A DNA stretch of 64,000 nt, from positions 35,776 to 99,775 of the forward strand of contig JBGATK010000001.1 of the NCBI GenBank assembly GCA_044229265.1, written 5' to 3'. Of the stretch, positions 611 through 23,913 are shown piece by piece. The notes under the pieces are model-generated. The model did not search any database and was not told the origin of the DNA. It was given only the letters and a program-made list of their open reading frames with translations. The first letter of the stretch is position 1. The number at the start of each line of letters is the position of its first letter. Origin of the DNA: Minisyncoccia bacterium (lineage in GTDB: Bacteria; Patescibacteriota; Minisyncoccia; Phycocordibacterales; UBA9973). The translations under genes were made by a program, and so were the position numbers.

Positions 611-3600
611 CTATAATTTTAATACCTTAGCTTGGTATTTCTTAACATCTGTTATAACAGATATTATGTAAACACCGCTAGGGTATTTCTCTAAACTAAC
701 TTCAAGCTTATCACCATTTTGTACTGGCAATACTCTTGTTTCAATGCCTTCTGAACTAATTATGCTGACTTTAGCATTTTGAGTTCCTTTTGGCAAATCG
801 ATAAACAATACTCCCCCTGTTGGGTTTGGATGCACTGATATCTCAAATTTCATGGCATCAATCAAGATTTGGTTTCTTTGATATTCTATTTCAACATCCT
901 CTTTAGAAGAACGTGAAGAAAGTTTCTCATCGTCTCCAGAGGAATTATTAGCACTACCATCCACGTCTCCTATCTTGATGCCAAAAAAGTCAGCATTCAT
1001 GACATCACCTGGAGGTGTGCCGTAAGTAATACTCAAAAATTCAGGGAAATTCCAAGTCATTGAACCTGAAGGAAAAACAAAACTCTGTGGCACAAAGCGC
1101 CATGAATTATTGTTTTGAAACCTTGGGTTAATTCCTAGAATCAATTTCCTAATCTCGGAAATATCAGAGGCAGTGACTGAACCGCTATGGTTCACATCAG
1201 CAGCTATCATTTGATACGGACTAAGAGTATCTTTCCCTAAAACATATCGTTGTATTTTAACGATATCTCTAGTGCTGACACCAAATAACGGATCATCATC
1301 CTTAAAAGGACTTACCTTGTGGGTCTTAGGTGCTAAAGAATCGAACTTGTAAGATCCCGAGCATATCATGCTCGTAGAGTCTAAAGTCATTTTGACATCT
1401 TCAACAATAGAGCCATTTGGCCTTTGTAGCACACCTGCAACCATCAGTGTATCCTTGAAAGCTGTTGGGCAACGTTTAAAATTGTCTTGTATATGTATTT
1501 TTGTTTTGACAAAAGTATAATTGCCATAACAGTCGAAAGCATACACAGTAATATTTCTCCATCCTAAGGAATCACAAGGATAAAGCATTTCAGTAATAAT
1601 TGTATCTTTAAAGAATGAGAACTTAATATCTTCGTTTTTACAACAATTATCGCTGAAACTCTTGATGAATTTTTCCAGAATTACTTTTGCTCCTAATCCC
1701 ATCGGTGGACAATCTTGTATGTCAGTAGCAAGACCATCTAATAATATGAGGCTAGGTGCTTTTTTGTCGCTAACCGTGATATTCATTGAACAAGTCGATG
1801 TGGTACCACAGCTATCATAAACAGTGAAAACAACTTTATGAACACCATTTGGGTATTTACCACTCGCATTAGCTCCTTTGACGAAAGAATATTTAGAATC
1901 ATTACTGATTTTTAGAATACCCCCACAATCGATTGCTGTTACTGATTCTAAGTTTACTACAACTGAATCATTGCAAGCTCCATAGTTGGCAATACTCGTG
2001 TCTTTTGGACAAAAGGTGATTACTGGTTTTGTGGAATCCATTACCTCAATGATCTGAAGATGAGTCCAATATGGACCTGTTTTCGGATTAAAGTTGCACC
2101 AGTCTATAACTTTCCAAGTTCGTAAAATGCCTTTGCATTTTCCGTTCTTACGAAAATTAAAAACTTCGTCAATGTATGACCATGCTATTTGTTTAGAACA
2201 ACCAACATGATCAAACTTTGGATATAATCCTCTGTCCGGACCATAATTAGCATGACAATCCCAAAATACTGTGTCTCGTGGCCATTTGATATTACTTTCG
2301 TCAAACTTTCGGCCATCGATTATAGTGATAGTCTGACTACAAATAGCTGTATTCCCGTTTGATGCAGTTGCCGTAAAAGTACGAACAACAGTCCCGACAT
2401 TACACATAGTTAGAAAATTTATAAAAGTATCTTTTAAAGATACTCCACAACTACTATATGCAACTGCTTTGCCATATTTTGATAAGTTTAAAATATCAAA
2501 AGTATCACAAGCTACGGTTATGTCGCGAGGGCAAGTTATTCTCGGAATACTTTTGTCTTGAAGAGTTATTGTAGAAAAACATTGAGCGATTTGATTTGTG
2601 TCGCACTTACTTCTTGCTTGTAAACAGACTTGAATAGTTTTACCAACATCATTACAACATAATTCCACATACTTACCTTCTTTACCTGTATCGAGTCTTT
2701 TAACGGTAAGAGTATAACCACAGCAAAGACTAACCATATCAATGAAAAAACTTTCAGCATAAACTCTAGAACAACTGTCTGAATTTAAGCTTGTATTTAT
2801 AGCTTTTTCACAAACGATATTAAAGGAGTTGTCTTCCTTTACATTTACCCAATACGAAGAAATCGTTTGATTACCACATCCATCTGTAATGGTGTAAATT
2901 ACCTCAAATTTTTTGATTTGAACTCTAATACCAGCAATATAGCCACCATTACCACGAATATCTCCGTAGTCTGTGTGTATAAACACACTGGCATTTTTGT
3001 CGCAATCATCAAATTGAATCGCTGGAACAAAATATTCCGCTTCGCAATCTGTATTGTTAACATAAATTGTTACATCTTTGGGCTTGTTTGCCACCAAAGG
3101 TGCGTCAAAGTCTGTGAAGATATACTTTGCTACGTATTTTTCTCCACAACTGGAGTTCCATTCATAGTAAACTATTCTCTCACATCCATTAGTTTCCTCC
3201 CAAACTTTTTTGGCAGGTCCCCATTGGCAGAAATTTCCAAGGGCCGAACAAAGAAATTCTATTTTGAAACCATAGAATTCCCAAATCGGTGGATTACATT
3301 GTTGATCAAAAGGATTACACCATCCATGTATAGGATTTGTACCATATACGAGGATATGAAATCCTTTATTTGCGTCGAAATATTTATTAAAAACAAATTC
3401 GACTAAACCAGAAGAATCTTTAGTAAACTTTACATCCACATTTACAGAATCAATTGCCTTTAGATTCCAATTTGCGTCGTAAAGTTCAGCTACGAGCCAT
3501 TTAGGTGCATTGGGTTTATTCTGGTCAGGTCTAGCCATCATGCTTTTGGTTACCCAGACATAATTAACCCAGAATCTGTTTACAACTGTGCCATGCTTGG

Positions 3601-4003
3601 TGTTACCAGTAATATTTACGGTACTATCCTTATCCTTAAACTGCATTACGCAAGTAGGCTTTGGATTAACTAAATTATTACAGCTGTTCCCAAGCTTGTC
3701 TTCAAGGAAACCTTCAGCACACAAACCATTGAATGGCAAGCCTCCTTGTAAATTCAGAGCCACACATGAAAGATTTTTAATCTCAACCATGTCTGTATCA
3801 ATCTCAGGGTAGGGTAAAGGACCCGGAAAAATCTGAAACATTTTTACTTCATCCTTGCAGGATAACGTAATTGCTGTGTCAGCATTTGGCGGACCTCCGG
3901 CCACCACGGCAGAAGCAGGCGGAGCTTCTGGCTTGTAGGTTAAGAAACAAGCACCCACGCCAAGGAGTGCCAAAAAGCCGTTTCGGAAATTTTTTAAATT
4001 CAT
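611..4003 (-). CDS. Giant cysteine-rich secreted lipoprotein with a dockerin-like segment and a T9SS (Por) C-terminal sorting domain
   Basis: 1130-aa ORF. N-terminus MNLKNFRNGFLALLGVGAC is a signal peptide with a lipobox-like GVGAC. Very many Cys residues. The segment DIVKIQRYVLG...ADVNHSGSVTASDISEIRKLILG resembles a dockerin repeat pair. The C-terminus VHPNPTGGVLFIDLP...KVSIISSEGIETRVL...YPSGVYIISVITDVKKYQAKVLKL matches the T9SS C-terminal-domain pattern (YPNP...I.LP...G.Y...K..K). Confidence 0.7.
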   Translation of the reverse strand: MNLKNFRNGFLALLGVGACFLTYKPEAPPASAVVAGGPPNADTAITLSCKDEVKMFQIFPGPLPYPEIDTDMVEIKNLSCVALNLQGGLPFNGLCAEGFLEDKLGNSCNNLVNPKPTCVMQFKDKDSTVNITGNTKHGTVVNRFWVNYVWVTKSMMARPDQNKPNAPKWLVAELYDANWNLKAIDSVNVDVKFTKDSSGLVEFVFNKYFDANKGFHILVYGTNPIHGWCNPFDQQCNPPIWEFYGFKIEFLCSALGNFCQWGPAKKVWEETNGCERIVYYEWNSSCGEKYVAKYIFTDFDAPLVANKPKDVTIYVNNTDCEAEYFVPAIQFDDCDKNASVFIHTDYGDIRGNGGYIAGIRVQIKKFEVIYTITDGCGNQTISSYWVNVKEDNSFNIVCEKAINTSLNSDSCSRVYAESFFIDMVSLCCGYTLTVKRLDTGKEGKYVELCCNDVGKTIQVCLQARSKCDTNQIAQCFSTITLQDKSIPRITCPRDITVACDTFDILNLSKYGKAVAYSSCGVSLKDTFINFLTMCNVGTVVRTFTATASNGNTAICSQTITIIDGRKFDESNIKWPRDTVFWDCHANYGPDRGLYPKFDHVGCSKQIAWSYIDEVFNFRKNGKCKGILRTWKVIDWCNFNPKTGPYWTHLQIIEVMDSTKPVITFCPKDTSIANYGACNDSVVVNLESVTAIDCGGILKISNDSKYSFVKGANASGKYPNGVHKVVFTVYDSCGTTSTCSMNITVSDKKAPSLILLDGLATDIQDCPPMGLGAKVILEKFIKSFSDNCCKNEDIKFSFFKDTIITEMLYPCDSLGWRNITVYAFDCYGNYTFVKTKIHIQDNFKRCPTAFKDTLMVAGVLQRPNGSIVEDVKMTLDSTSMICSGSYKFDSLAPKTHKVSPFKDDDPLFGVSTRDIVKIQRYVLGKDTLSPYQMIAADVNHSGSVTASDISEIRKLILGINPRFQNNNSWRFVPQSFVFPSGSMTWNFPEFLSITYGTPPGDVMNADFFGIKIGDVDGSANNSSGDDEKLSSRSSKEDVEIEYQRNQILIDAMKFEISVHPNPTGGVLFIDLPKGTQNAKVSIISSEGIETRVLPVQNGDKLEVSLEKYPSGVYIISVITDVKKYQAKVLKL

Positions 4004-9903: not shown

Positions 9904-10968
9904 TTATTTTAAAGCTTGCATTCCTGGCAATGTGCCTTTCGCTAAAAATTCTAAAGCTGCACCTCCTCCAGTAGATACAAAAGTATATTTTTCTTCTAAT
10001 TTTAATTCATTTACAAGTTCTACAGTATCACCGCCGCCTATGATTGAAGAGATTTTTTTATCTGCAATAGTTTTTAAAATTTTTCGAGTTGCCTTGTCTC
10101 CACCATCTTCATATTTACCAAGTGGACCATTCCAAAGCACAAATTTTGTCTTGGCTAATTTTTCTTCTAACAAAACAATGCTTTCTTTTCCTATATCTAC
10201 GATAGTATCACCCTCATTAATTTCTTCTATTTTTTTATTTTGCAATACGCCACCATTTTCTACCAGCACATCGGTTGGTAATAAAATCTTCTTATTTTTT
10301 AAAATATTTTTTGGTACAGAAAAATTCTTATCTGTGATTGATTTCCCAACAGACAAGCCAGAACTTTCTAAAAATTCATTGAGAAGTGCTCCGCCGATAA
10401 AAATGTGATCAGCTGTGGCCAAAAATTTTTTCACTAATGGTAATTTAGTAGCAAATTTTACACCACCTAATATAAACAAAAATGGATGTTTTGGTTTTTT
10501 AAAAGCTAAGGATAAGTTTTTAATTTCAGCTTCAAATTGAAGTCCCATATATGCTGGCAGAAATTTTGGCAAACCTGATACAGAAGCATGGTTTCTATGA
10601 GAAACTGAAAAAGCATCATTTACATATAAATCAAAACCCTGCGCTAAAGATTTTGCAAAATTTTTATTATTTTCCATTTCACCAGTAAATTTTCTAATAT
10701 TTTCGGAAAAAGTAATTCTATTCTCTGGGAATTTGGTAATTTTAAAAAAATGTTTAATAACTGGACTGATATCTGCACTGCCATCGTCCCCCAGATGCAT
10801 TAATATATGCAGATTTGCCCCCTTACCCAATAAATAAAGTATAGTGGGTACTGATTTTTTAATACGAAAATCATCCTCTACCCTATCATCTTTTATAGGC
10901 ACATTATAATCTACTCGCAAGAGTACTTTTTTATTTTTTAAATTTTTTACTTTTTTAATACTTTGCAT
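9904..10968 (-). CDS. pgk: Phosphoglycerate kinase (short form)
   Basis: 354 aa; KKVLLRVDYNVP near the N-terminus, with hinge and C-domain motifs; adjacent to tpiA. Confidence 0.85.
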   Translation of the reverse strand: MQSIKKVKNLKNKKVLLRVDYNVPIKDDRVEDDFRIKKSVPTILYLLGKGANLHILMHLGDDGSADISPVIKHFFKITKFPENRITFSENIRKFTGEMENNKNFAKSLAQGFDLYVNDAFSVSHRNHASVSGLPKFLPAYMGLQFEAEIKNLSLAFKKPKHPFLFILGGVKFATKLPLVKKFLATADHIFIGGALLNEFLESSGLSVGKSITDKNFSVPKNILKNKKILLPTDVLVENGGVLQNKKIEEINEGDTIVDIGKESIVLLEEKLAKTKFVLWNGPLGKYEDGGDKATRKILKTIADKKISSIIGGGDTVELVNELKLEEKYTFVSTGGGAALEFLAKGTLPGMQALK

Positions 10969-11736: not shown

Positions 11737-13485
11737 TTATTCAGTTTCCTGCCAGCTCTCGACACTCCACCCACCCGAAGGCCCAGAAACGAAATTTGCA
11801 TTTATTAGACCCGAATCGAAAGTAATGACAGCATTATTATTTAAACTTATTTTATACCCATTTACCGATGTCGCTCCAGCATTATTGCTAACACTGACTG
11901 TACCATTCGCAGCATAAAGAACCACTGCTCCAGCATTATTACCAAGAGTTATTGCTGAAGTAGATGTAGATGTAGAAAGCGCCATTATATAACTACCTGC
12001 GGTGCCAGAGCCGTGAAAATCCGCATTATTGCCGACAGTTATAGTACCATCAGCTATAACTGCCCCTTCTCCTGATCCATAACCAGAAGATAGTCTTATA
12101 TCGACATTATTACTAAAAGAAATATTCCCTGTCACCCATAAAGTACCGGTAATAGTAAGGTCGCTATTGTTTTGAACAGTCAAATTCCCAACAATTTTTT
12201 TAGGTCCGAGTGAAGTAGTAGTGCTATCTATAGTCATATTACCTGTATATGTACCTCCGGCTAATGCTTCATCTTTCCAATCTAAAATATTTTGGTCAGA
12301 AATAGGCATCGCAATTGCTGCTGGATCAGCAAGTGATGTGTTGCACGATTTGTTATTTCCACTTCCCGTCTGGCAATAATTCGTGCCTGCGATAGTCGAA
12401 TTATTCACTGTATGAGCGTAAGCATTACCTACTCCACCAGAGCCGACAGTAATACCACTTATAAGCCCAGTGAGTCCTCCTAAATATAATTTGAAAAAGC
12501 CATCCAGCCCTCCCGGTGTAGTATTATTCCAAGTGCTACTATATTGACCTATTTTCCCAGTGCCACTACTATAACCATTTGCATTTGCACCTATATAATA
12601 ATATCTAGAAGAATTTGTTCCGCCATCAATAACTATCCAATACGTAGTACCAGCAGTAAGCTGTGGATTTGTGGACATTGGTACTGACACCCAGCCATAA
12701 GTTGTAGATATGAGCGATGCAGAAAGAGTACCAGAAGCCAGTGTAGTGGTGCTAGGTACGCCACTATTATCAGAAACAATTCGCACGGTTAGATTGCTAG
12801 GTGTGCTTACTTTTTTCAAATAAAGTTCAACCTTATTTACTACATCGGTAATGCTCGGCACAAAACTTTGCGCAAAATCTTGGGTACCATTTGCATTACC
12901 AAATTGCACATCATAAGCTGGTGTGCCGGAACCATTTGTCTGATCTGCGGTAAGAGCAGCAGAATTTGCAGATGTTGCAGATCCAGTAATACTACCAGAA
13001 CCTGTAATATTACCATTGGAATAAACACTACCTATAACACTAGAATTATTAGCCATAGTAAGACCGCCTTGACCCGACTGCACTCCATAATTAAAAGAAA
13101 TACCTGTACCTGCCTCTAAAATTATCTCATTTGCTCTATCTCTATTCCCGACATCACCAGCTGATGTAATTGTTTTTTGATTTCCCGCGTCGATAATATT
13201 TGTAGTAGCACTATAGCCATCTATATCTATAGTTTCTGTTGAGCCAATAGTTTTACCTGAATTAATTCTATAATATGCATCTTCGACGCCAGACTCTGAG
13301 AGATAGAACGATTTTTTAGCTTTTAATCCCGTATCAGCGAGCTTGTATTCAGAAACTGTTGGTGAAACCAAGCCCACAATCAAAGAAGCTGACAAAGCTG
13401 TAAAAAAAACTAGTGATACTATGAGAGCTTGACCCTTTTGATATTCATTATTATATTTATTTTTTGAAAAATTTTTTTTAAACAT
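11737..13485 (-). CDS. PilX-like minor or tip type IV pilus component (large G/S/T/N-rich secreted protein)
   Basis: 582 aa; N-terminus ...YQKGQALIVSLVFFTALSASLIVGLVS fits the PilX_N pattern (Q/R-G-x-ALIV...); last gene of the pilin block. Confidence 0.5.
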   Translation of the reverse strand: MFKKNFSKNKYNNEYQKGQALIVSLVFFTALSASLIVGLVSPTVSEYKLADTGLKAKKSFYLSESGVEDAYYRINSGKTIGSTETIDIDGYSATTNIIDAGNQKTITSAGDVGNRDRANEIILEAGTGISFNYGVQSGQGGLTMANNSSVIGSVYSNGNITGSGSITGSATSANSAALTADQTNGSGTPAYDVQFGNANGTQDFAQSFVPSITDVVNKVELYLKKVSTPSNLTVRIVSDNSGVPSTTTLASGTLSASLISTTYGWVSVPMSTNPQLTAGTTYWIVIDGGTNSSRYYYIGANANGYSSGTGKIGQYSSTWNNTTPGGLDGFFKLYLGGLTGLISGITVGSGGVGNAYAHTVNNSTIAGTNYCQTGSGNNKSCNTSLADPAAIAMPISDQNILDWKDEALAGGTYTGNMTIDSTTTSLGPKKIVGNLTVQNNSDLTITGTLWVTGNISFSNNVDIRLSSGYGSGEGAVIADGTITVGNNADFHGSGTAGSYIMALSTSTSTSAITLGNNAGAVVLYAANGTVSVSNNAGATSVNGYKISLNNNAVITFDSGLINANFVSGPSGGWSVESWQETE

Positions 13486-13497
13486 TTTAAATTTAAA

Positions 13498-13995
13498 TTA
13501 ATAACTACCACGTAAAACTACCGTGTCATAAAATGTAGCTGAATTTACACCGCCATAACGAGTAGAAGTAATAGTGAATTCTATTTTTACGGCTACACTA
13601 TTTGCTGTCGTAATTTGAGTAAAAGTAAGCCCGGAGACAGAAAGAGTGCTGGGATTTAAATTACCCACCAAAACATCATCTTCATAGAAAAGTAAATTAC
13701 TGCCTGAAAGTGTAAATTGTGAGCTATCACCAACTAGGGTGCCGTCTTCAATGCGAACTTTTAAATCAGTGCTGCTAATACTCACGATACTACTTGCCTC
13801 ACGAACTTCGCGAGCTATACGCTCCATAATATTTGCGCCTTCAGCTAATTCTATATTTATTTTTGCATTTCTGAAAGATTTAGTCAGAACTATAGTTGAT
13901 TGTATTATCAGCATTGAAAGCATTAAGAAAATAGCGATATAAAAAATCATTTCAAGTAGCGAGAATCCTTTTTTATTTTTTAAAAAATTTTTCAT
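13498..13995 (-). CDS. Prepilin-type pseudopilin (minor pilin)
   Basis: 165 aa; KKGFSLLEMIFYIAIFLMLS is a class III (prepilin peptidase) cleavage and methylation N-terminus. Confidence 0.7.
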   Translation of the reverse strand: MKNFLKNKKGFSLLEMIFYIAIFLMLSMLIIQSTIVLTKSFRNAKINIELAEGANIMERIAREVREASSIVSISSTDLKVRIEDGTLVGDSSQFTLSGSNLLFYEDDVLVGNLNPSTLSVSGLTFTQITTANSVAVKIEFTITSTRYGGVNSATFYDTVVLRGSY

Positions 13996-14002
13996 TTAAA
14001 TT

Positions 14003-14500
14003 TTAAAATAAATCCGTTATGTAAAATTTTATATTTTTCTCCATAACAGTAGTGCCTTCTGTCCAACCCACTGACACTGTTACTAATTTTGTTCCTGTAT
14101 CGAGTACTCCCCCAGAAGAAACTATATCCTGCGTAGACGCATCACGATACACATCAGAAAAAACAATCCTTCGAGTAAAAATACCTATAGTGGAAGGAGT
14201 TTGACTTACACTCCACGTTCCATTTGAAAATGAAGCATAGTAATAACTAAGTGCAGTTGGGCCAGAAATATTAGTCCAATTATTATCACGCAAAATCCGA
14301 ACTATTTCAGCTCCTTCTTCTAAAATTAAACTAGCTTGCATTTGATGAAGTGATCTACGAGAAACTTCTATTCCTTTTTGTGCTACTGCTGATGCAGAAA
14401 TAATAAGCATTACCAAAACAGCAGCGATTACCAAAAGTTCTACCATCATAAAACCTCCTTTATTTTGTTTTTTATTTTTTAAAAAATAAAACATAAACAT
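14003..14500 (-). CDS. Prepilin-type pseudopilin (minor pilin)
   Basis: 165 aa; KGGFMMVELLVIAAVLVMLII has a G|F processing site followed by a hydrophobic helix. Confidence 0.7.
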   Translation of the reverse strand: MFMFYFLKNKKQNKGGFMMVELLVIAAVLVMLIISASAVAQKGIEVSRRSLHQMQASLILEEGAEIVRILRDNNWTNISGPTALSYYYASFSNGTWSVSQTPSTIGIFTRRIVFSDVYRDASTQDIVSSGGVLDTGTKLVTVSVGWTEGTTVMEKNIKFYITDLF

Positions 14501-14961
14501 TAATTCACACTTATGTGGCCAGTTGGACTAATTGTAATTGTTTTTGTGTATGAATCTGCTGACAAAACAATAGTTCCATTTACATTTGGTGCACCATATA
14601 TTCTACTAAAATACACATCGGTAGCTCCGCCCGTTAAAGAAATAGTTGATATACTAGCAGGAGAAGAAATAGTTGTAATAATATTACTCCCTGCTAGAGC
14701 TGAATAAGTAGTCCCTTCAAAAATTATAACTTGATTATTTGCAAAATGCACACCGTACTCTTTGGAATCAAGAGAAGATATAGTATTTGTGCGAGCTTTA
14801 TTTATAGCTGAAAAAACATCAGCTGTAGAATTTTGCAAACTTTGCAGAGTACGGAAACTGCTAAATTTTGGAATTACCACCACAAGTAAAATGCCAATAA
14901 TAGCTACAACTATTAAAACTTCAATTAAATTTATACCCTTATTAAAATTATTTTTTTTCAT
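14500..14961 (-). CDS. Prepilin-type pseudopilin, GspH/FimT-like
   Basis: 153 aa; KGINLIEVLIVVAIIGILLVVVIPKF matches the GspH/FimT N-terminal consensus. Confidence 0.7.
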   Translation of the reverse strand: MKKNNFNKGINLIEVLIVVAIIGILLVVVIPKFSSFRTLQSLQNSTADVFSAINKARTNTISSLDSKEYGVHFANNQVIIFEGTTYSALAGSNIITTISSPASISTISLTGGATDVYFSRIYGAPNVNGTIVLSADSYTKTITISPTGHISVN

Positions 14962-14968
14962 AATTTAA

Positions 14969-16180
14969 TTAACCTATATTATTTAGAACAGAATAAAGTG
15001 GAGTTATCATAGACAATGCAAAAAAACCAACTCCTGTTCCAATTAAAATCATCAAAATTGGCTCAATAATAGTGGAGAGATTTTTAGTTTTATTTTCAAT
15101 TTCATTTTCATAAAAAATAGCAATTTCTGTGAGCATATCAGCTAATTTACCTGTTTCTTCGCCAACTTGAACCATCTCGGTCATCATAATAGGGTAAAGT
15201 TTTGGATTATCTTCAAAAACTTTTGCAAAAGGTGCTCCTTTTTCTACGGATTTTACTGCATCCTCCATGACTTTTTTATAATAAACATTTTGCACAACAT
15301 CACGAGTAATCTCTATGGCCCGTGTTATAGACACACCAGATAAAATAAGTGAAGAAAGAGTGCGCGCTGTCCGAGCAGTATTGAGCTCGCGTGCCATTGT
15401 ACCAAAAACTGGTAATTTTAAAACTACAAAATCTATATATTTTTGACTAGCTTTTGCAGTAAAAAGAAAATATAATCCTACTCCAAATAAAATTGCTCCT
15501 AGTAAAGTAAGTATTAAATTATTTGATATGAAATCACCAAGCCAAAGCACAAAACGTGTAGTTGGAGGTAATTTTACGCCAAGTTCTTTGAAAGTATTAG
15601 CCAGTGTAGGAACCACGAAAGCAAACATTAATATACCTATTATTACCATAGCGGAAATAATTACCCCTGGGTACATCATCGCGCCTTTAATTTTTTTTGT
15701 AAGAGAATTAGATTTTTCTAAATTCATGCCTATCTCAGTAAGAGCTCCAGCTAAATTACCGGACTCTTCCCCAGCACGAACCATGGAAACAAAAAGTGGC
15801 GAAAAAGCTTTTGGTTTTTTAGCGAGCCCACTCGATAATGTTCCGCCATTATTAATTTCATCGATAAGACTAGCAATTATTTTTTTAAAAAACTCTTTTG
15901 GAGTTTGTTTTTCTAAAACCGAAAGAGCTCTACCTGCTGACAAGCCAGCTTTTAACATGCCTGCTAAATTTTTGGTAAATAAAATTAAATCCTGCATTTT
16001 CACCCCACCAAAAATGCCATCAAAAGAAATATTCCAAGAATTCTTTTTTTGTTCTTCAATTAGAATTGGTATTGAACCTTTTTCTCTAAAATCACGGGCC
16101 ACTGCAAAGCGATCCACAGCTTCTGTAGTGCCTTCTATTATATTTCCCTCTTTATTTTTTATTTTATATTTAAAAAGCAT
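14969..16180 (-). CDS. pilC: Type IV pilus assembly platform protein PilC (GspF family)
   Basis: 403 aa; two repeated GspF domains with three transmembrane segments; N-terminus MLFKYKIKNKEGNIIEG... as in PilC. Confidence 0.9.
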   Translation of the reverse strand: MLFKYKIKNKEGNIIEGTTEAVDRFAVARDFREKGSIPILIEEQKKNSWNISFDGIFGGVKMQDLILFTKNLAGMLKAGLSAGRALSVLEKQTPKEFFKKIIASLIDEINNGGTLSSGLAKKPKAFSPLFVSMVRAGEESGNLAGALTEIGMNLEKSNSLTKKIKGAMMYPGVIISAMVIIGILMFAFVVPTLANTFKELGVKLPPTTRFVLWLGDFISNNLILTLLGAILFGVGLYFLFTAKASQKYIDFVVLKLPVFGTMARELNTARTARTLSSLILSGVSITRAIEITRDVVQNVYYKKVMEDAVKSVEKGAPFAKVFEDNPKLYPIMMTEMVQVGEETGKLADMLTEIAIFYENEIENKTKNLSTIIEPILMILIGTGVGFFALSMITPLYSVLNNIG

Positions 16181-16189
16181 TATATAAAT

Positions 16190-17941
16190 TTACTCAGAAA
16201 CCACTCTAAATACTTCTTCTACGCTAGTATTCCCTAGTGCTGCTTGAAAAATACCATCTTCTATCATGGTCATCATTCCTTCTTTTTTTGCTTGAGCTTC
16301 AATATCGTCTTGTGAAGCACCTTTTAAAACTAATTCCTTGATAGCACCTGAAACCTTTAATACTTCATGAATACCTACACGGCTTTTATAGCCATCTTCC
16401 GATTCAGCACTTTTTACTGGCCGATAAAATGCTACTTTATCCCAACTATCATCTTTGCCAATAATATTTTCAGCTTTTAAAAAACCTAACATTCTATCTA
16501 AATCTACAATTTTAGCTAAATTTGCTAATTCGTCTTTATTCATAAAATATTTTTCTTTTGATGAAGTTAAACGTCGTACAAGACGCTGAGCAATAATAGT
16601 TTTCACAGTAGAAATAATCAGAAATGGCAATGCGCCCATATCTATCATACGAGGAACAGCACCAGCAGCTGAATTAGTGTGAATTGTAGAAAGCACTAAG
16701 TGTCCAGTAAGTGAAGCATTAATAGCAAGAGATACAGTTTCCCCATCACGAATTTCCCCTACCATTACGATATCAGGGTCCTGACGAAGAAGTGCACGTA
16801 GTCCTTGTGCAAAAGTTAAACCTATTTCTGGTTTTACTTGTGTTTGATTTACTCTTGGCATTTGATATTCCACTGGGTCTTCTACCGTAGAAATATTTAC
16901 ATCTGGCTTATTTAACATATCGAGCATAGTGTAAAGCGTAGTAGTTTTACCCGAACCGGTAGGGCCAGTAGCTAGTATCATACCTGTTTTTTGTTTCATG
17001 GATTCATAAATTTTCTCTAATCCTTCACCATGAAAACCTAATCCTTCCAACGAGAAACCATGAGAATTTTCTTTTAAAAGACGAATCACAGTTTTTTCAC
17101 CGAAAAATGTAGGTAGTGTAGAAACACGAAAAGAAACTTTTTCACCATTTTGTTCTATTTTAAAACGACCATCTTGTGGGAGTCTTTTTTCATCAAGCTT
17201 TAAATTCGACAATACTTTTATGCGTGCAGTTATGCCTGGTGCTGCACTTTTATCGAGTGTCATGGCATCATGCAAAATACCATCAATACGGTAGCGCACT
17301 ACTAATTTTTCTTCACCTGGTTCTATGTGAATATCAGAAGCATTTTGCAAAATAGCATGAAAAACTAATGAATCCACGATCTTAACTACAGGCAAATCTT
17401 CAGCCATTTCTTTTAATTCTTGCGCTGATTTTTCTCCTCCACCCTCATCGTTCTTTAATTTTAAAGAATTTGATTCTTCTTGAATAATATTTGAAAATTC
17501 TGCTTGTAAACTTTTGCGATATTGCACAAGAGCACTTTTTATAGATGCACTATCTGTGAGGCGTGGTAAAATTTTGAGCCCGGAACGCTTTTTAATAAAA
17601 TCAATAACAGGCAAATCGTCCACGTCGAGCATAGCTACTTCTAATTCTTTTTCTGTTTTTTTATAACCAATAATATTATAATTTCGAGCAATTGGCTCTG
17701 GGATAAGTGAAAGTATAGCTATATCTATTTTTTCTTTTTCCAAAGAAACAAAAGGTATACCTAGAACATGGGCTTCTATTTTGCGAAGCTCTGTTTCTTT
17801 TAATTTATTTTGAATAAGAAGAGTATCAGAAAGGGTTTGCCCTTTTTCACTCGCAATTTTTGCCATATCATTTAAATCCGATTCTGAAATTAATTTACTA
17901 TCAAGTAAAAATTTCTTGAGTTGTTTTTCATCTATCTCCAT
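16190..17941 (-). CDS. pilB: Type IV pilus assembly ATPase PilB (GspE family)
   Basis: 583 aa; GspE_N-like N-terminus, Walker A GPTGSGKTTTLYTML, Asp and His boxes. Confidence 0.9.
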   Translation of the reverse strand: MEIDEKQLKKFLLDSKLISESDLNDMAKIASEKGQTLSDTLLIQNKLKETELRKIEAHVLGIPFVSLEKEKIDIAILSLIPEPIARNYNIIGYKKTEKELEVAMLDVDDLPVIDFIKKRSGLKILPRLTDSASIKSALVQYRKSLQAEFSNIIQEESNSLKLKNDEGGGEKSAQELKEMAEDLPVVKIVDSLVFHAILQNASDIHIEPGEEKLVVRYRIDGILHDAMTLDKSAAPGITARIKVLSNLKLDEKRLPQDGRFKIEQNGEKVSFRVSTLPTFFGEKTVIRLLKENSHGFSLEGLGFHGEGLEKIYESMKQKTGMILATGPTGSGKTTTLYTMLDMLNKPDVNISTVEDPVEYQMPRVNQTQVKPEIGLTFAQGLRALLRQDPDIVMVGEIRDGETVSLAINASLTGHLVLSTIHTNSAAGAVPRMIDMGALPFLIISTVKTIIAQRLVRRLTSSKEKYFMNKDELANLAKIVDLDRMLGFLKAENIIGKDDSWDKVAFYRPVKSAESEDGYKSRVGIHEVLKVSGAIKELVLKGASQDDIEAQAKKEGMMTMIEDGIFQAALGNTSVEEVFRVVSE

Positions 17942-17954
17942 TACTATAATTATA

Positions 17955-17985
17955 ACAAAAAATTCCCCATACAGGGGAATTTTTT
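17955..17985 (-). terminator. Intrinsic terminator between the surface-protein operon and pilB
   Basis: Hairpin attccccatacaggggaat flanked by an A-run and a T-run. On the minus strand a TATAAT lies just downstream, about 7 nt from the pilB ATG. Confidence 0.55.
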
Positions 17986-18002
17986 GTTAATTATTTTTAT
18001 TT

Positions 18003-20309
18003 TTAATATAAAGTTCGCCAAGCATATGTATTTGCAGCATCTTTGGCGCATACTTCTACATTATCTTTTACACCTGTAGCACCCTGTACCACAAAAAACA
18101 TACCCCGAACACTGGCTGTGCATGATGGTTTAGCAGAATTATTATTATTTACGATAACTCCTCCATTAAAAGTATTTTGTGTTATTGCTGTATTACCAAA
18201 AACCATAGAATTACTTGCACTGACTATAGCTCCATTACCAATTGCTGTAGCATTAGTTAAACCACCAGTAGAAACATCCGCACTATAACCAATAGCTGTA
18301 TTGTTTGTTCCAGTAGTATTTGTTAGTAAGGAAAAATAACCAAAAGCTGTGTTATTTGAACCTGTTGTTGCATTTAAAGAACCATTACCAAATGCAGAAT
18401 TATTATTACCAGCAGTATTTAATTGCAAAGCACCTTTTCCAAAAGCACTATTTCTATCGCCATCTAAATTATTTAAAAGAGCTTGATATCCAAAAGCGGA
18501 ATTTTCGAAACCACCTGTATTTACAGCAAGAGCAGTAGAACCCACAGCTGTATTTCTATACCCTACAGTATTGTCTCTAAGAGCCCATTGTCCAAAACCA
18601 GAGTTAGCATCACCTGTAGTATTTGATTGTAAAACTTGATATCCAACAGCAGTATTATTTGCCAATCCAGAATTATTTCCACCGAGAGCATTAATACCTA
18701 CAGCCAAATTTGTTCCTAATTGGTTAGTGCCTTTACCTACAATTACACTACTGATAGATATATTACCCGAAGTATCTACTCTCATTCTCTCAACCCCACT
18801 CGTAGTTATTGCAAAAATATCAGCTCCTGGAGAAAATGTTCCCGTATTTGTATCACCTAAAAATGTCCGAGTTGGAGCACTTGCTGTGCCTAGTGTGGTA
18901 GCTACTGCTCCAGCCACTTCAAACTTTGAAACAAAAGTAGTTCCTACAGGTTGCCCCACACCAACACTTCCATTAACTGGATTTATTACGACATCTCCTT
19001 TCAAAGAACCATTGCTTGTAGAATCTAAAATTAAATCTCCATTTGCAGTAGAATTTCCATTTATTGTAAAACCAGCCATTTGCAATGCTTGTGTAGCTGT
19101 ATGATTTCCTAAATTATCAGCACCGCCACATGTTTGCCATTCAAAAGTTGCACCTGTAGTTTCGTAAGTTAAACAAAATTCATCAGTAGCAGTACCAGAA
19201 ATACTAACCTTTGATACAGTAACAGCGCCATTTAATATTTTTGTATTTGAAACAGCATTAACTGCTATTTTGGGATCATCTACAGCAAGAGCTGCTATTT
19301 TTCCATTGGTTATAGACAAAGCATCGACAGTCCAAACTGTGCCAGTACCAGAAACAGTAATGTCTCCTTTATCACCATCTGTAATACCACCATTAGCTGT
19401 AAAAGTAATATTACTATTATTTACATCATGAGTAATGGTAATTCCTGAACCGGCTATCAAACCTTTATATTCCAAACTAAGACCAGTATCATCTAAACCT
19501 AGAACCTTATTAGCACCTCCAAAAACTGCAGCTATATCAGTTTTAGATACACCATCAACAGCTATTTTGTCGCTAGTTATAGAATCTGCAGCTAATTCTG
19601 TATTACCAACCACTCCTGCATCTATATTCCAAACACTACCACTAGAGGAAACAGTGATGTCGCCTTTGTCGCCATCTGTTAGAGAATTTAACACTTGCCA
19701 AGATCCGTCGCCTCGCAAATAATTTGTAACGCCAGGAGTGCCTGTAATAGCAGATGAAAATAATGGTATTCTATTTGTATTAATTTCTTGCACAGGACCA
19801 GCTGAATTACCTAAATTCGCTAAAAATCTATTAGCTCCAACATTTTGAATTTTTGAATAGGTAACAGCCAAAGGATCTATAGTCCAAGTAGCTCCACTAC
19901 CAGAAACAGTAATGTCGCCTTTATCACCATCGGAAACACCTCCGGAACTAACATCCCAAGTTAAATTACCTGCACCATCAGTTTTTAAATATCCATTTGC
20001 AGTTTGGTTTGCAGGAAAAGTATATGTTTCTGTATTTAGAGTAAGTGTTTTGCCTGGAAAGATAGTTACATTACCTTTTAAATCTGAAGTTCCGTCTACT
20101 ACTAATACTGTACCAGAGCGTAGTCCACTCCATGCTACTATTCCTCCGTCTTTTGCTTGAGTAGTGGAGCTTGTGTTTATTGGGGGTTCGGTGTTGCCAA
20201 GAGGTGGAATACCGGACGGTGGAACCCAAGTAGCAAAAGCTTGTAAGCTTATACTAAAAAGTGATATCGCTAAAAATGATTTAAGAAAAATTTTCTTTTT
20301 TAAAGACAT
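18003..20309 (-). CDS. Large secreted surface protein with internal repeats (DGDKGDITVSGSG..WTID three times); paralogue of the next gene
   Basis: 768 aa; signal peptide ...SLQAFA|TWVPP; the N-terminal ~130 aa are near-identical to the 20348-22021 product; G/N/T/S-rich beta-solenoid-like composition. Confidence 0.7.
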   Translation of the reverse strand: MSLKKKIFLKSFLAISLFSISLQAFATWVPPSGIPPLGNTEPPINTSSTTQAKDGGIVAWSGLRSGTVLVVDGTSDLKGNVTIFPGKTLTLNTETYTFPANQTANGYLKTDGAGNLTWDVSSGGVSDGDKGDITVSGSGATWTIDPLAVTYSKIQNVGANRFLANLGNSAGPVQEINTNRIPLFSSAITGTPGVTNYLRGDGSWQVLNSLTDGDKGDITVSSSGSVWNIDAGVVGNTELAADSITSDKIAVDGVSKTDIAAVFGGANKVLGLDDTGLSLEYKGLIAGSGITITHDVNNSNITFTANGGITDGDKGDITVSGTGTVWTVDALSITNGKIAALAVDDPKIAVNAVSNTKILNGAVTVSKVSISGTATDEFCLTYETTGATFEWQTCGGADNLGNHTATQALQMAGFTINGNSTANGDLILDSTSNGSLKGDVVINPVNGSVGVGQPVGTTFVSKFEVAGAVATTLGTASAPTRTFLGDTNTGTFSPGADIFAITTSGVERMRVDTSGNISISSVIVGKGTNQLGTNLAVGINALGGNNSGLANNTAVGYQVLQSNTTGDANSGFGQWALRDNTVGYRNTAVGSTALAVNTGGFENSAFGYQALLNNLDGDRNSAFGKGALQLNTAGNNNSAFGNGSLNATTGSNNTAFGYFSLLTNTTGTNNTAIGYSADVSTGGLTNATAIGNGAIVSASNSMVFGNTAITQNTFNGGVIVNNNNSAKPSCTASVRGMFFVVQGATGVKDNVEVCAKDAANTYAWRTLY
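19874..20198. repeat. ~325-bp near-identical tract, copy 1 (within the 5' part of the 768-aa gene)
   Basis: Matches 21583-21907 with about 4 mismatches when read directly. The ORF track shows identical 82-aa shadow ORFs in both places. Confidence 0.85.
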
Positions 20310-20347
20310 ATAAATATTATAACAATAAAAAACTACTAACGAAAGAT

Positions 20348-22021
20348 TTATTTTATCTTTGCTTCGAGGATTTCTAAACGCCTACGCAAATCTTCATTTT
20401 CTTTTTTTAGTTCATTAATTTGAGCTTCATGTTTTTGAGTTTCTTTAAGTAGCAATACTGACAACATTGGATATTTAACAGAATCTGGGATTAGTAAATC
20501 TCTTGTGCTACCGGCAATTACATTCTTCTCTGGAATATAGTCCACCAAAGCAGGCACAACTTTATCTACATCTTCGGCTATAAGACCAAAATACCTAAGT
20601 CCATCACTTTTTGAAGTATAAGAAACTGGTTTCAAATCATAAATTTTTGAAGTATCTATTTCTAAATCCGCGACATCTTTTTTATATCTTATAGAAGAAG
20701 TTGAGCGAAGTAATTTACTAGTACCTGTATCATAATACGCATTTGCAGCATTTGCTGTCGTTCCAATACTTCCAAATGAAGGATTGGTTAGTGTTTTCCC
20801 CGATAGAGTTTGAGTGCCTGTTGTATCTACTGGGGTAAAAGTAGTCCACCCTGTACCTGAATTAACTCTACGTAAAGCATCATTATTACCAGGGCATTTC
20901 TCTACAAGAATACCTGTAGTTTCGGCAGCCAACATACAACCTCCGGTGACGCTTGATACTCCAGTACCTCCTTTACCTACAGGTAAAATACCCGCAACCT
21001 CAGTCGTAGCTAGGTCAACTTGAGCTGTAGTTCCACCACCAGTAGCAAATATGTAATTATTAGCAGTTATAACACCAGCACCAGTTGGACCCAACGTACC
21101 TGAGGTCAGTAGTGCTACTGTATTTGTACCTGTTGTAACACTCGCAAATGATACTGACCCTCCACCTCCAGATGTTCCACAAGAAAAAGTATTTGTAGCA
21201 ATAACATAATTTAAATGATTTCCTCCAGAATCAGGACAATTTAAAAGTGCTTTTGCTTCCCAAGCAGAACCATTTGAAACAAGTAGGGTATCGTCAACAG
21301 CACTTGAAAGGCCTGTGCCACCTTTGGCAAAAGGCACGACATTGTTATAAGTAGTAGAGAGTCCGGTAGAAGTAACGTCCCCAGTTAAGTTTCCCATAGT
21401 AGGTGTTCCCCAAGTATTATCGCCTCGCAAAAAAGTAGTAGAATCTTTTGTGCCAGTAGCTGAGAGCTTTGTAGTCGCTACTATAGTAGCATCAGTAATT
21501 TTTATATTAGTTATTGCATTGTCTGCAATTTTTGAATTTCCTACTGCATTGTCTACAATCTTTCCTGTTGTAATAGTAAGTGGGTCTATAGTCCAAGTAG
21601 CTCCACTGCCAGTAACAGTAATGTCGCCTTTATCACCATCAGAAACACCTCCGGAACTAACATCCCAAGTTAAATTTCCTGCACCATCAGTTTTTAAATA
21701 TCCATTTGCAGTTTGGTTTGCAGGAAAAGTATATGTTTCTGTATTTAGAGTAAGTGTTTTGCCTGGAAAGATAGTTACATTACCTTTTAAATCTGAAGTT
21801 CCGTCTACTACTAATACTGTACCAGAGCGTAGTCCACTCCATGCTACTATTCCTCCGTCTTTTGCTTGAGTAGTGGAGCTTGTGTTTATTGGGGGTTCGG
21901 TGTTGCCTCCTGTTGGAGGAGTGCCTATTGGAGGCACCCACACTGCAAATGCTTGCAAAGCTATTGCAAAGGCTGTGAGGACGAAAACAGATTGAAGAAA
22001 AATTTTTGTTTTATAAGTCAT
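20348..22021 (-). CDS. Tail-fibre-like surface protein with a C-terminal intramolecular chaperone auto-processing (peptidase S74-like) domain
   Basis: 557 aa; signal peptide ...LQAFA|VWVPP; C-terminus RSTSSIRYKKDVADLEIDTSKIYDLKPVSYTSKSDGLRYFGLIAEDVDKVVPALV...YPMLSVLLLKETQKHEAQINELKKENEDLRRRLEILE matches the endosialidase/tail-fibre chaperone domain pattern. Confidence 0.7.
   Translation of the reverse strand: MTYKTKIFLQSVFVLTAFAIALQAFAVWVPPIGTPPTGGNTEPPINTSSTTQAKDGGIVAWSGLRSGTVLVVDGTSDLKGNVTIFPGKTLTLNTETYTFPANQTANGYLKTDGAGNLTWDVSSGGVSDGDKGDITVTGSGATWTIDPLTITTGKIVDNAVGNSKIADNAITNIKITDATIVATTKLSATGTKDSTTFLRGDNTWGTPTMGNLTGDVTSTGLSTTYNNVVPFAKGGTGLSSAVDDTLLVSNGSAWEAKALLNCPDSGGNHLNYVIATNTFSCGTSGGGGSVSFASVTTGTNTVALLTSGTLGPTGAGVITANNYIFATGGGTTAQVDLATTEVAGILPVGKGGTGVSSVTGGCMLAAETTGILVEKCPGNNDALRRVNSGTGWTTFTPVDTTGTQTLSGKTLTNPSFGSIGTTANAANAYYDTGTSKLLRSTSSIRYKKDVADLEIDTSKIYDLKPVSYTSKSDGLRYFGLIAEDVDKVVPALVDYIPEKNVIAGSTRDLLIPDSVKYPMLSVLLLKETQKHEAQINELKKENEDLRRRLEILEAKIK
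21583..21907. repeat. ~325-bp near-identical tract, copy 2 (within the 5' part of the 557-aa gene)
   Basis: See copy 1. Confidence 0.85.
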
Positions 22022-22044: not shown

Positions 22045-23604
22045 TTAATTTTCTTTGTATTTTCTAGTTTGTTTACCAGAACTAGGATTAATATCTAAGG
22101 TTGTGGAATAAATTTGGTTTGAATTACCTGTGCAAGTAATAGTAAATTTATTATTACCTGCTGGAACATCGATATTAACCTCTTCGTGTGAACCATCAGA
22201 ACTGTCTTTAGGATTTGGTGTTTGCCACGAAGGATTGTTTGGCGCGGAAGTAGGGACACAAGAATTTGCCTGCATTCCAAGCACTGTCCATTTGAGCGTG
22301 GTTTTATTTCCCACAACTTTTGTATTAGAAAATGTAAGTTGCTCATTGAAACCCTTATTCACAAAAACAGGCTGGGCATTCACTGGCACTCCCCCATCAA
22401 AACATTGCAAATCAAAACGAACTGGGGCACTGATGTTTGCAATAGAATAATCGTATTTTGTTTGAGTAGTTGTATTTGAAGTAAAAGGACTTACCTTCCA
22501 ATCTGCCTGTGAATTTCCGAAAGAATCAGTAGTGTGTGCTATACAGCCTGTAAGCGGAGCATCAGAATACCAAGTAAGGTCAACATCAAAAGGTGAATAT
22601 GATACAAAGCTATCTGGAGCAAGGAATAATCGTATACCTACGTGAACTACTACACGTTCTACTACAGACCAAATAGTGCCAGTAGTGTCTAGACATTTTA
22701 TTTCATATATATAATCTCCTTTAGTATTCAAAATACCTGTATTAAAAGTGCCACTTGGTGAATTTTTTTCTGGCACTGGATTTATCCATGCTCCTGTATC
22801 CTGTGAACCTGCACCTTGGCTAGCCAAACATCCAGTAGGACTATTTATTAAATTAAGACCATCCCAAAATATTGTAGTTTGACCACCTTGAGGGATATAA
22901 ATATCTTGCGCTGAAATTGTAACCATGGGTTCATTGATAGGATCATAAAAAACATTTGAAAAATCTAACCAACCTACGACTTGTTCATCGTGAATACCTG
23001 AGCCATCATTTCCACCAAAGGCATAACCACCAAAAGTTTTTAAATTAGCATCATAACTGACACCATAGCCAGTGCCACGAAGAGAAAGCCATCCATCCCA
23101 ACCCCCATTTGAAGCATTTTTACCAGCATTGCCAGTACAAAGAGAAGGGACAGCTGAAGGCGAACAAAAACGAGCCCAGCCTCGAACTTCATTTCCGACT
23201 ACTTGGGCATTTTGAGTATAAGTTCCAAAACCAGTAGGCATTTCACTAGTATTTAATCCTCCGAATTTTACCCAACCATAGTGAGCTGAATAAGCATAAC
23301 CTTCTAAATAACCAGTATTTGGATCGAAATTTACACCATAATTTGAATCACTACATCCATTATGAGAGACACAATTAAAAGAAAGCCATTCTGTTCCACC
23401 TCTGACTAAACCATAGCCAAAATCACCTTCATCCATACCCCAAGCTGCACCCTGCAAACTATCTAGAGTGCTACCTTTGACTAAATTATTTGAAAAAGAG
23501 AATAAAAATCCAAAAACAACTACAATTACTAAAAACTTGATTGCTTTTACATGATCAAATTTAATCAAACTAACTTTTTTAAATATTTTTTTAAAAATTT
23601 GCAT
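22045..23604 (-). CDS. Secreted hypothetical protein (N-terminal anchor, Gly/Trp/Cys-rich)
   Basis: 519 aa ORF with an N-terminal hydrophobic segment; no recognisable family. Confidence 0.5.
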   Translation of the reverse strand: MQIFKKIFKKVSLIKFDHVKAIKFLVIVVVFGFLFSFSNNLVKGSTLDSLQGAAWGMDEGDFGYGLVRGGTEWLSFNCVSHNGCSDSNYGVNFDPNTGYLEGYAYSAHYGWVKFGGLNTSEMPTGFGTYTQNAQVVGNEVRGWARFCSPSAVPSLCTGNAGKNASNGGWDGWLSLRGTGYGVSYDANLKTFGGYAFGGNDGSGIHDEQVVGWLDFSNVFYDPINEPMVTISAQDIYIPQGGQTTIFWDGLNLINSPTGCLASQGAGSQDTGAWINPVPEKNSPSGTFNTGILNTKGDYIYEIKCLDTTGTIWSVVERVVVHVGIRLFLAPDSFVSYSPFDVDLTWYSDAPLTGCIAHTTDSFGNSQADWKVSPFTSNTTTQTKYDYSIANISAPVRFDLQCFDGGVPVNAQPVFVNKGFNEQLTFSNTKVVGNKTTLKWTVLGMQANSCVPTSAPNNPSWQTPNPKDSSDGSHEEVNIDVPAGNNKFTITCTGNSNQIYSTTLDINPSSGKQTRKYKEN

Positions 23605-23607
23605 AAT

Positions 23608-23913
23608 TTACTGTGTAATATTTAGTAGATCTTGCTTGGAATCTGTTTCATTTCTAGTGTATATATCTTTAGGAGGTGCGACTCTATTCAAATCTTTCTT
23701 CGCTTCAACATCAGATTTTAAATCTGCTGGAGGCTGAAAAGAATTCAAAGTTTCAAGACTTTTCGCATTTTTTTCTTCTTGAGTAAGCTCGGTATTCGGC
23801 ACAACTTGTTCAATCCTAGGAGCAGAATCTTTCTTGATTAAGAAATAAAAAATACCGGCAATTAACAAAACTACTAAAATGCCTACAAAAATAAAAATTT
23901 TTTGTTTTGCCAT
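23608..23913 (-). CDS. Small membrane-anchored hypothetical protein
   Basis: 101 aa; single N-terminal transmembrane segment (IFIFVGILVVLLIAGIFYFLI); first gene of the minus-strand surface-protein operon. Confidence 0.45.
   Translation of the reverse strand: MAKQKIFIFVGILVVLLIAGIFYFLIKKDSAPRIEQVVPNTELTQEEKNAKSLETLNSFQPPADLKSDVEAKKDLNRVAPPKDIYTRNETDSKQDLLNITQ

Follow-up and report, generated by a model that had tools for sequence, protein, structure and literature searches.

Two adjacent genes on the minus strand of contig JBGATK010000001.1 from a Minisyncoccia bacterium, most likely an episymbiont with a small AT-rich genome, encode secreted proteins of 768 and 557 aa that resemble phage tail fibres and share a tract of near-identical DNA close to their 5' ends. 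We analysed this tract, the two fibre genes and their surroundings within a stretch of 64 kb (positions 35,776 to 99,775 of the contig), which is referred to as the window and to which the coordinates apply unless stated otherwise (Table 1). Read along the minus strand, the genes for a 101-aa protein with a transmembrane (TM) helix and for a 519-aa protein are followed by the 557-aa fibre gene, the 768-aa fibre gene, a hairpin and the type IV pilus genes pilB and pilC. Three pilin-like genes, a gene for a 582-aa protein, tpiA and pgk come next.

Table 1. Features of the fibre locus and their positions in the window (ORF, open reading frame)
Feature	Position	Strand	Remarks
768-aa secreted fibre gene, non-S74 type	18003-20309	-	ORF, PHROG matches
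Conversion tract, copy in 768-aa gene (mature N-terminal module)	19873-20198	-	nt 112-437, codons 38-146
557-aa secreted fibre gene, S74 type	20348-22021	-	ORF, Pfam PF13884
S74 intramolecular chaperone/autoprotease region (residues 442-557)	20348-20698	-	PF13884, motif, model
Conversion tract, copy in 557-aa gene	21582-21907	-	nt 115-440, codons 39-147
519-aa membrane-anchored protein, directly upstream of the fibre genes	22045-23604	-	candidate partner
101-aa protein, first gene of the unit	23608-23913	-	one predicted TM helix, acidic tail
Terminator-like hairpin	17953-17989	.	between 768-aa gene stop and pilB start; 16-bp stem, flanking A and T runs
Type IV pilus genes	11737-17941	-	pilB 16190-17941, pilC 14969-16180, three pilin-like genes 13498-14961

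Both fibre proteins begin with a Sec-type signal peptide of n-h-c organization, in which lysines and a hydrophobic core lead to the sequence ..LQAFA at residue 26 (..LQAFA↓T in the 768-aa and ..LQAFA↓V in the 557-aa protein). The signals end in AFA, as for signal peptidase I, and residues 3-26 form a helix in an AlphaFold2 (AF2) model of the 557-aa protein. Identity of the fibres as type IV pilins or pseudopilins was rejected, as they carry no class III signal/N-methylation motif (G↓F/M-x-x-x-E) and gave no N_methyl match. The signal peptide is followed in both proteins by a shared N-terminal module (N-module) of ~120 aa, which reaches to about residue 147 and comprises a leader, a unit of ~60 aa and a first DUF5907-like repeat.

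Beyond the N-module the two proteins are built differently. The 768-aa protein has three DUF5907-like repeats in total with the motif GDKGDITVSGSG.W.ID, followed by a shaft of NTA.G repeats and a C-terminal knob of ~60 aa with two cysteines (about residues 708-768). Residues 468-737 match PHROG families of virion structural, tail spike and tail fibre proteins with E values down to 5e-26, and the shaft is 35-48% identical to sequences from IMG/VR viral contigs. We take the NTA.G/NSAFG repeats of the shaft (about residues 520-705) to resemble YadA-type heads. No match to Peptidase_S74 (PF13884) was found in this protein. The repeats are called DUF5907-like only, because they stay below the Pfam threshold of DUF5907 (PF19264; 13.7 bits against a cut-off of 27 in the 768-aa protein, no match in the 557-aa protein), though the GDKGDITVSGSG.W.ID motif is common to many PF19264-bearing matches.

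The 557-aa protein has a single DUF5907-like repeat, a Gly/Thr-rich shaft and, as the original prediction had stated, a C-terminal Peptidase_S74 chaperone domain. PF13884 matches residues 442-493 with an E value of 8.1e-9 and 36.1 bits, above the gathering cut-off of 22, and further PHROG matches lead to the C-termini of phage tail fibres. The Ser442-Lys447 pair is intact (SSIRYK; consensus S-D/S-x-x-x-K), and both residues are conserved in 12 of the 13 aligned homologues, namely the 12 whose fetched C-terminal segment spans the motif. A terminal helix is placed at residues 527-556 by the AF2 model, with a predicted local distance difference test (pLDDT) score of 72-91. The S74 domain is 55-57% identical to those of the homologues P0010 and P0009, the latter assigned to Bacteroidetes by its source, but shares just 29% identity with that of P0003, an 819-aa protein encoded at the corresponding locus of a related genome (contig L001, ENA ERZ4210451).

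The repeat shared by the two genes was first seen by a repeat finder as a direct repeat of 300 nt with 97% identity and a spacing of 1709 nt. Pairwise alignment and a script, by which the tract limits were set, gave a full extent of 326 bp on the minus strand. Over the first 230 bp the two copies do not differ at all, and the last 96 bp contain five differences (window positions 19968, 19932, 19904, 19899 and 19875), four of which are synonymous while one exchanges Ser for Thr or vice versa. The prediction had been about four differences over 325 bp, within residues ~37-145, which is essentially what we measured. It was likewise correct in describing the flanks as diverged: on the 5' side, the first 96 nt encoding the signal peptide are 64% identical between the paralogues and are followed by a one-codon indel, and on the 3' side identity falls to 30-50%, so that the sequences are barely alignable. 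A stretch of 230 identical bases against such diverged flanks is not due to chance. A search for further copies, which had also been suggested, was run within the 64-kb window and revealed no third copy.

Gene conversion and the constant part of the fibres

Judged from the sequences, the 326-bp near-identity is the product of a recent intragenomic gene conversion between tandem paralogues. The patch is internal and near-identical including its synonymous sites, its borders are diverged, and within it the paralogues are closer to each other than to the gene of a relative. That is, the corresponding region of the P0003 gene shows 57-87% DNA identity per 30-nt window to either of the two fibre genes and carries many synonymous changes relative to both. 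Since diverged sequence lies on both sides, the tract represents an internal conversion patch and not the trace of a recent whole-gene duplication. In a more distant lineage, represented by contig L007, the N-termini of the tandem fibre genes are clearly diverged in DNA, i.e. without recent conversion, which indicates that complete homogenisation is specific to the genome studied here and recent. Thus, of the earlier claim of recent conversion or duplication, conversion or segmental copying between the adjacent surface-protein genes is supported by the synonymous identity and the diverged flanks. As a process, gene conversion is nothing unusual.

To place the tract in the context of the whole proteins, we compared the N-terminal 135 aa of the fibres within and between genomes. 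Identity is 88% for the two window fibres, 60% for the two L007 fibres and 61% for the two fibres of a third lineage, contig L011, as compared to 29-38% between the window, L007 and L011 lineages. The distal parts behave otherwise. P0003 combines an S74 tip with a shaft like that of the 768-aa protein (54% identity over 724 aa), and the knob is found in L001 on the upstream gene, ~90% identical over the last 60 aa as estimated by eye. These sequences indicate that the N-module is the part kept uniform within a genome, whereas shafts and tips are mosaic. The original prediction, in which interchangeable N-terminal modules could give rise to surface variation, is thereby reversed: N-modules are alike within genomes (60-88%) and dissimilar between them (29-38%), and it is the shafts and tips that are exchanged. 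The N-module is probably the anchor and the tips the variable part.

Relatives of the N-module were collected by exhaustive HMMER search. The leader of both window fibres conforms to W-V-P-P-x-G-x-P-P-x-G-N-T-E-P-P-I-N-T-S-S-T-T-Q-A-K-D-G-G, and the pattern A-x-W-x-x-P-x-x-x-P-P-x-x-N-x-x-x-P-[IL]-N-x-[GS]-x-x-x-Q-x-K-x-G, located directly after the signal peptide, heads many secreted proteins of metagenomic origin that range from 160 to 1577 aa and carry unrelated downstream domains (P0021, P0146, P0148, P0156, P0166, P0181, P0183 and P0193). In a scan of genome contigs, the sole carrier, a distant one, was found in a metagenome-assembled genome labelled Candidatus Saccharibacteria (L002, positions 9992-10813), and a metagenome scan returned four short contigs (L003-L006) with the leader only. 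The motif is unmatched in Pfam, PHROGs and NCBIfam; it looks like a common docking or sorting element. The adjoining unit of ~60 aa, 'YTFP..Q.ANG.LKTDGAGNLTW', ends in YTFPANQTANGYLKTDGAGNLTW and occurs 10-13 times in the giant proteins P0121-P0123 (2,225-4,405 aa). Hence, a portion of the tract corresponds to a fibre repeat unit of wide occurrence rather than to a unique domain. The viral contigs, which share the shaft, showed no N-module with the patterns scanned. Sequence searches of the PDB gave no match.

Alternative explanations

The two copies could also be viewed as a substrate for variation, in which case the identity of the tract would be kept for that purpose: RecA-mediated deletion, duplication or unequal exchange between the direct repeats would switch shaft and tip or alter the copy number, resulting in phase or antigenic variation. 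The geometry would allow this, as the two copies have the same orientation and reading frame at a distance of 1709 bp, and recombination between them would yield an intact hybrid gene. Moreover, P0003 joins a 557-like signal-peptide end, recognizable by a GG insertion, to a 768-like shaft and an S74 tip, a composition which implies that shuffling has occurred over evolutionary time. However, the window agrees with the Logan contigs of the same strain, without any alternative junction, and no dedicated recombinase was found nearby among the Pfam-scanned ORFs of the window. In addition, the N-modules of the paralogues in L007 and L011 are only ~60% identical at the protein level, which is too diverged for efficient homologous recombination and shows that high identity of the tract is not a conserved property of the locus. 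We therefore consider this explanation unlikely.

A second possibility is that the whole fibre gene was duplicated in tandem very recently and that the 3' part of one copy was replaced thereafter, leaving the tract as a remnant. The tandem arrangement of the paralogues and their similar overall layout would fit. But a recent duplication would not produce signal-peptide codons that are just 64% identical and differ by a codon indel immediately 5' of the tract, and the pair of paralogues is old, as it is present in L001, L007 and L011 alike, making this scenario very improbable.

We give an equally low chance to the idea that the genes encode true virion tail fibres of a prophage or tailocin remnant and not cellular adhesins. 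It is suggested by the S74 domain, the PHROG tail-fibre matches and the shaft modules in common with IMG/VR contigs. Yet both fibres possess Sec signal peptides, whereas virion tail fibres assemble in the cytoplasm and need no Sec signal. The viral contigs that share the shaft did not show the N-module, as mentioned above. Furthermore, a Pfam scan of 26 neighbouring or large ORFs of the window, which include nusA, ppa, tig, tpiA, pgk, murB, pnp, rny and uvrD, detected no phage genes, in line with the earlier remark that a phage context is missing, and divergent genomes carry the fibre genes at the same chromosomal place, between nusA and pilB.

That the identity was generated by repeat collapse or consensus building during metagenome assembly is less probable still. 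The source is probably a metagenome-assembled genome, and contigs of related assemblies break in the region. However, a repeat makes assemblers break or mis-join contigs but is not created by them, both ORFs are uninterrupted and in frame, and five positions distinguish the copies. Two contigs from read set SRR28480387, L012 and L015, which are derived from essentially the same strain (99.99% identical over 13.7 kb), allow a further look at the repeat. L015 ends 30 nt (k-1) into the tract copy of the 557-aa gene, i.e. at its 5' edge, and L012 begins at window position 19934, two nucleotides before a copy-specific variant in the copy of the 768-aa gene. An assembly is expected to break in this manner when two left and right contexts enter one common sequence. 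This pattern, the behaviour of a de Bruijn graph at a true two-copy repeat, argues against an artefact, although SRR28480387 is not known to be independent of the reads underlying the window. An artefact, which the original prediction had named as the outcome that would overturn it, is accordingly not favoured by contigs that break at the tract edge and in its variant-bearing 3' part.

Contigs from a second strain (L013 of GCA_964617005.1 and the Logan contig L014; 97-99% identical) stop at the equivalent of window position 19644. Position 1 of L013 and position 1 of L014 coincide and lie within the second DUF5907-like repeat encoded by the orthologue of the 768-aa gene. This repeat is without a long exact copy elsewhere in the genome of the window, so that the strains may differ in how their repeats are arranged.

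Very strong purifying selection on the N-module in the absence of recombination, for which its conservation between genomes at the protein level might speak (78% to P0003), is refuted with practical certainty, because selection on the protein leaves synonymous sites free to change and thus cannot explain a tract in which the window copies show 0 differences over 230 bp while P0003 differs at many synonymous positions. Gene conversion between the tandem paralogues thus remains the explanation on which we build in the following.

Neighbouring genes and conservation of the locus

Divergent relatives retain the fibre locus immediately upstream of the type IV pilus genes, a setting that the original prediction had not noted. 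In L001, whose PilB is 89% identical to that of the window, a gene cut by the contig end is followed by P0003 and then by pilB, pilC and onwards, with the same order of pilus genes. In L007-L010, nusA on the opposite strand is followed by genes for a 124-aa and a 521-aa protein, by P0183 (805 aa, knob type) and by a second fibre gene cut by the contig end. L011, a 712-kb contig with a PilB of 78% identity, encodes proteins of 105 and 510 aa, a 488-aa fibre, P0148 (1577 aa, S74), a pair of PG_binding_1 proteins, and PilB, PilC and pilins, in this order. The two PG_binding_1 proteins of L011 (678 and 578 aa; positions 14812-18679 of that contig) lie between the fibres and pilB and are absent from the window.

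In the 519-aa protein encoded upstream of the fibres, an N-terminal TM helix is combined with GYAWS/GW..F repeats and with immunoglobulin-like repeats that contain a conserved cysteine. It gave no Pfam, PHROG or NCBIfam match, and its homologues in L007 and L011 occupy the same position and are 41-43% identical. The counterparts of the 101-aa protein in these two lineages share only 23-28% identity and are conserved by position.

Downstream of the 768-aa gene, the hairpin recurs at positions 2944-2980 of L001 and 18687-18722 of L011, and a TATAAT-like box follows in each case. Its stems differ in sequence yet remain complementary in the three pilB-containing lineages (CCCC/GGGG, CCC/GGG and CCCTC/GAGGG). 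As a conserved, strong and bidirectional terminator-like hairpin separates them, the fibre unit and the pil operon are adjacent but probably give rise to separate transcripts. Among the pilin-like genes, the neighbouring 153-aa gene and one of two 165-aa genes yielded N_methyl matches. The 582-aa protein encoded further on (11737-13485, minus strand) contains a choice-of-anchor R domain (NCBIfam, E value 4e-9), has a counterpart of 67% identity in L001 and may act as an adhesin associated with the pilus.

Proposed role and known systems

The explanation that accounts best for the locus as a whole, and which we hold to be reasonably probable, is a pair of Sec-secreted fibres with a converted N-module, a shared anchor partner and variable tips. 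Both proteins would be exported via Sec as phage tail fibre-like, presumably trimeric molecules. The 557-aa fibre would fold with the help of its C-terminal S74 chaperone, which may cleave itself off before Ser442 after folding of the trimer, and the 768-aa fibre would end in its non-S74 knob. Non-reciprocal recombination has overwritten the mature N-module of one gene with that of its neighbour, presumably as the latest episode of a long process that keeps the N-module uniform in each genome, and shafts and tips would be swapped with the wider pool of phage and bacterial fibre genes. We infer that the N-module docks both fibres to one surface partner encoded nearby, which could be the 519-aa membrane protein or a complex of pilus and minor pilin; docking to one common partner would require that the N-module stays matched within a genome. 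The tips, in turn, may bind different ligands on host cells.

Several points weigh against this proposal. The upstream paralogue in L001 and the N-terminus in L013 are cut by contig ends before the state of the tract becomes visible, and the likeness of N-modules within a genome could also have arisen if each lineage duplicated its fibre gene independently and then replaced the tips. Structure prediction rendered the N-module as an extended chain (pLDDT 80), searches of the PDB and BFVD with this model gave no significant match, and the AF2 monomer model of the full 557-aa protein, computed with no alignment, had a pLDDT of 37. The link between fibres and pili is one of position only, with a conserved terminator in between. 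While the tract and its origin by conversion, the domain make-up, the conserved locus and the likeness of N-modules within genomes are shown by the sequences, trimerisation, cleavage, surface display and adhesion are deduced.

A more far-reaching version, which we regard as rather unlikely, is that the leader-bearing N-module acts as a group-wide docking signal that plugs phage-derived fibres onto a platform encoded at the same locus, i.e. the 519-aa protein or the minor-pilin tip. If true, an ultrasmall episymbiont would recognise its hosts by exchangeable phage-style fibres on or beside a retractile pilus, and every fibre would continue to fit the platform owing to gene conversion.

The Bdellovibrio bacteriovorus MAT (mosaic adhesive trimer) fibres appear to be the closest analogue; we liken the window fibres to them by architecture and do not file them as members. 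In Caulton et al. 2024 (PMC10769870), 21 such fibres are reported in the HD100 genome, 13 with and 8 without an S74 domain. They are described there as having a signal peptide, a conserved β-rich N-domain of ~130 aa in all paralogues, a trimeric fibre and swapped tips; Bdellovibrio uses them on prey, and the authors raise a possible interplay with type IV pili. Thus, S74 domains outside phages are not unprecedented, as they are carried by 13 of the 21 MAT fibres. The resemblance extends to cell-encoded proteins in which a signal peptide (residues 1-26) precedes an N-module shared by the paralogues up to residue ~147, a fibre and variable tips, to the coexistence of S74 (557-aa) and non-S74 (768-aa) members, with tips in L001 swapped relative to position and shaft, and, probably, to a life on other bacteria. 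The two systems differ in that one belongs to Bdellovibrionota and has 21 genes, whereas the other belongs to a CPR (candidate phyla radiation)-like lineage and has two genes in tandem. A CPR affiliation is suggested by the small AT-rich genome, the 712-kb contig of the relative (L011), the gene content and the occurrence of the leader in a metagenome-assembled genome labelled Saccharibacteria. The N-module here consists of the leader, the repeat unit of the giant proteins and a DUF5907-like repeat, and resembles the MAT N-domain in its position behind the signal peptide. The linkage to pilB/pilC and the 519-aa gene and the recent conversion are seen here, and neither figures in the available part of the MAT account.

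S74-chaperoned phage fibres and spikes such as K1F endosialidase and T5 pb1 (cited in PMC10769870) offer a second comparison. In common with these, the window fibres show PF13884 at the extreme C-terminus with its Ser...Lys pair and terminal helix, shaft modules of PHROG type, and a conserved N-terminal attachment part combined with a variable distal part subject to mosaic exchange. They differ by their Sec signals, by the lack of virion genes nearby, by a stable chromosomal position and by the N-terminal part, which the scanned patterns did not reveal in viral contigs. YadA-like trimeric autotransporters are different, too: although the source of the homologue P0010 names it a 'trimeric autotransporter adhesin', the window fibres have no C-terminal membrane-anchor β-barrel and no Pfam Hep_Hag/YadA match, and they terminate in a soluble knob or an S74 domain.

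Conversion and concerted evolution of paralogous surface genes are known from Neisseria opa/pil and from tandem adhesin families, where they classically diversify the exposed variable part. A near-identical patch in diverged paralogues, identity at synonymous sites and a likeness that is greater within than between genomes are found here as well. In contrast to the classical cases, it is the constant and presumably cell-proximal part that is homogenised.

Recognition and binding of hosts by ultrasmall episymbionts are poorly understood, and the fibre locus supplies concrete candidates for host-range determinants. It places phage-style receptor-binding fibres with a constant attachment module beside pilus genes and is conserved though PilB of the relatives may be only 78% identical. 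In Saccharibacteria, type IV pili have been implicated in host binding (PMC9894109, PMC12206443), while the determinants of specificity are not known. Concerted evolution of the N-module in combination with swapping of tips is a testable idea for how compatibility with the anchor could be maintained. The literature searched contained no link between S74 fibres and Patescibacteria.

Elsewhere in the window, Rfam searches identified tRNAs only, and a 984-aa ORF (56237-59191, plus strand) had no Pfam match at E<=0.001. A 1130-aa protein (611-4003, minus strand) yielded dockerin matches, both these and its Por_Secre_tail match being marginal; the latter, the C-terminal sorting domain of the type IX secretion system (27.9 bits against 27), is unexpected for a Patescibacterium.

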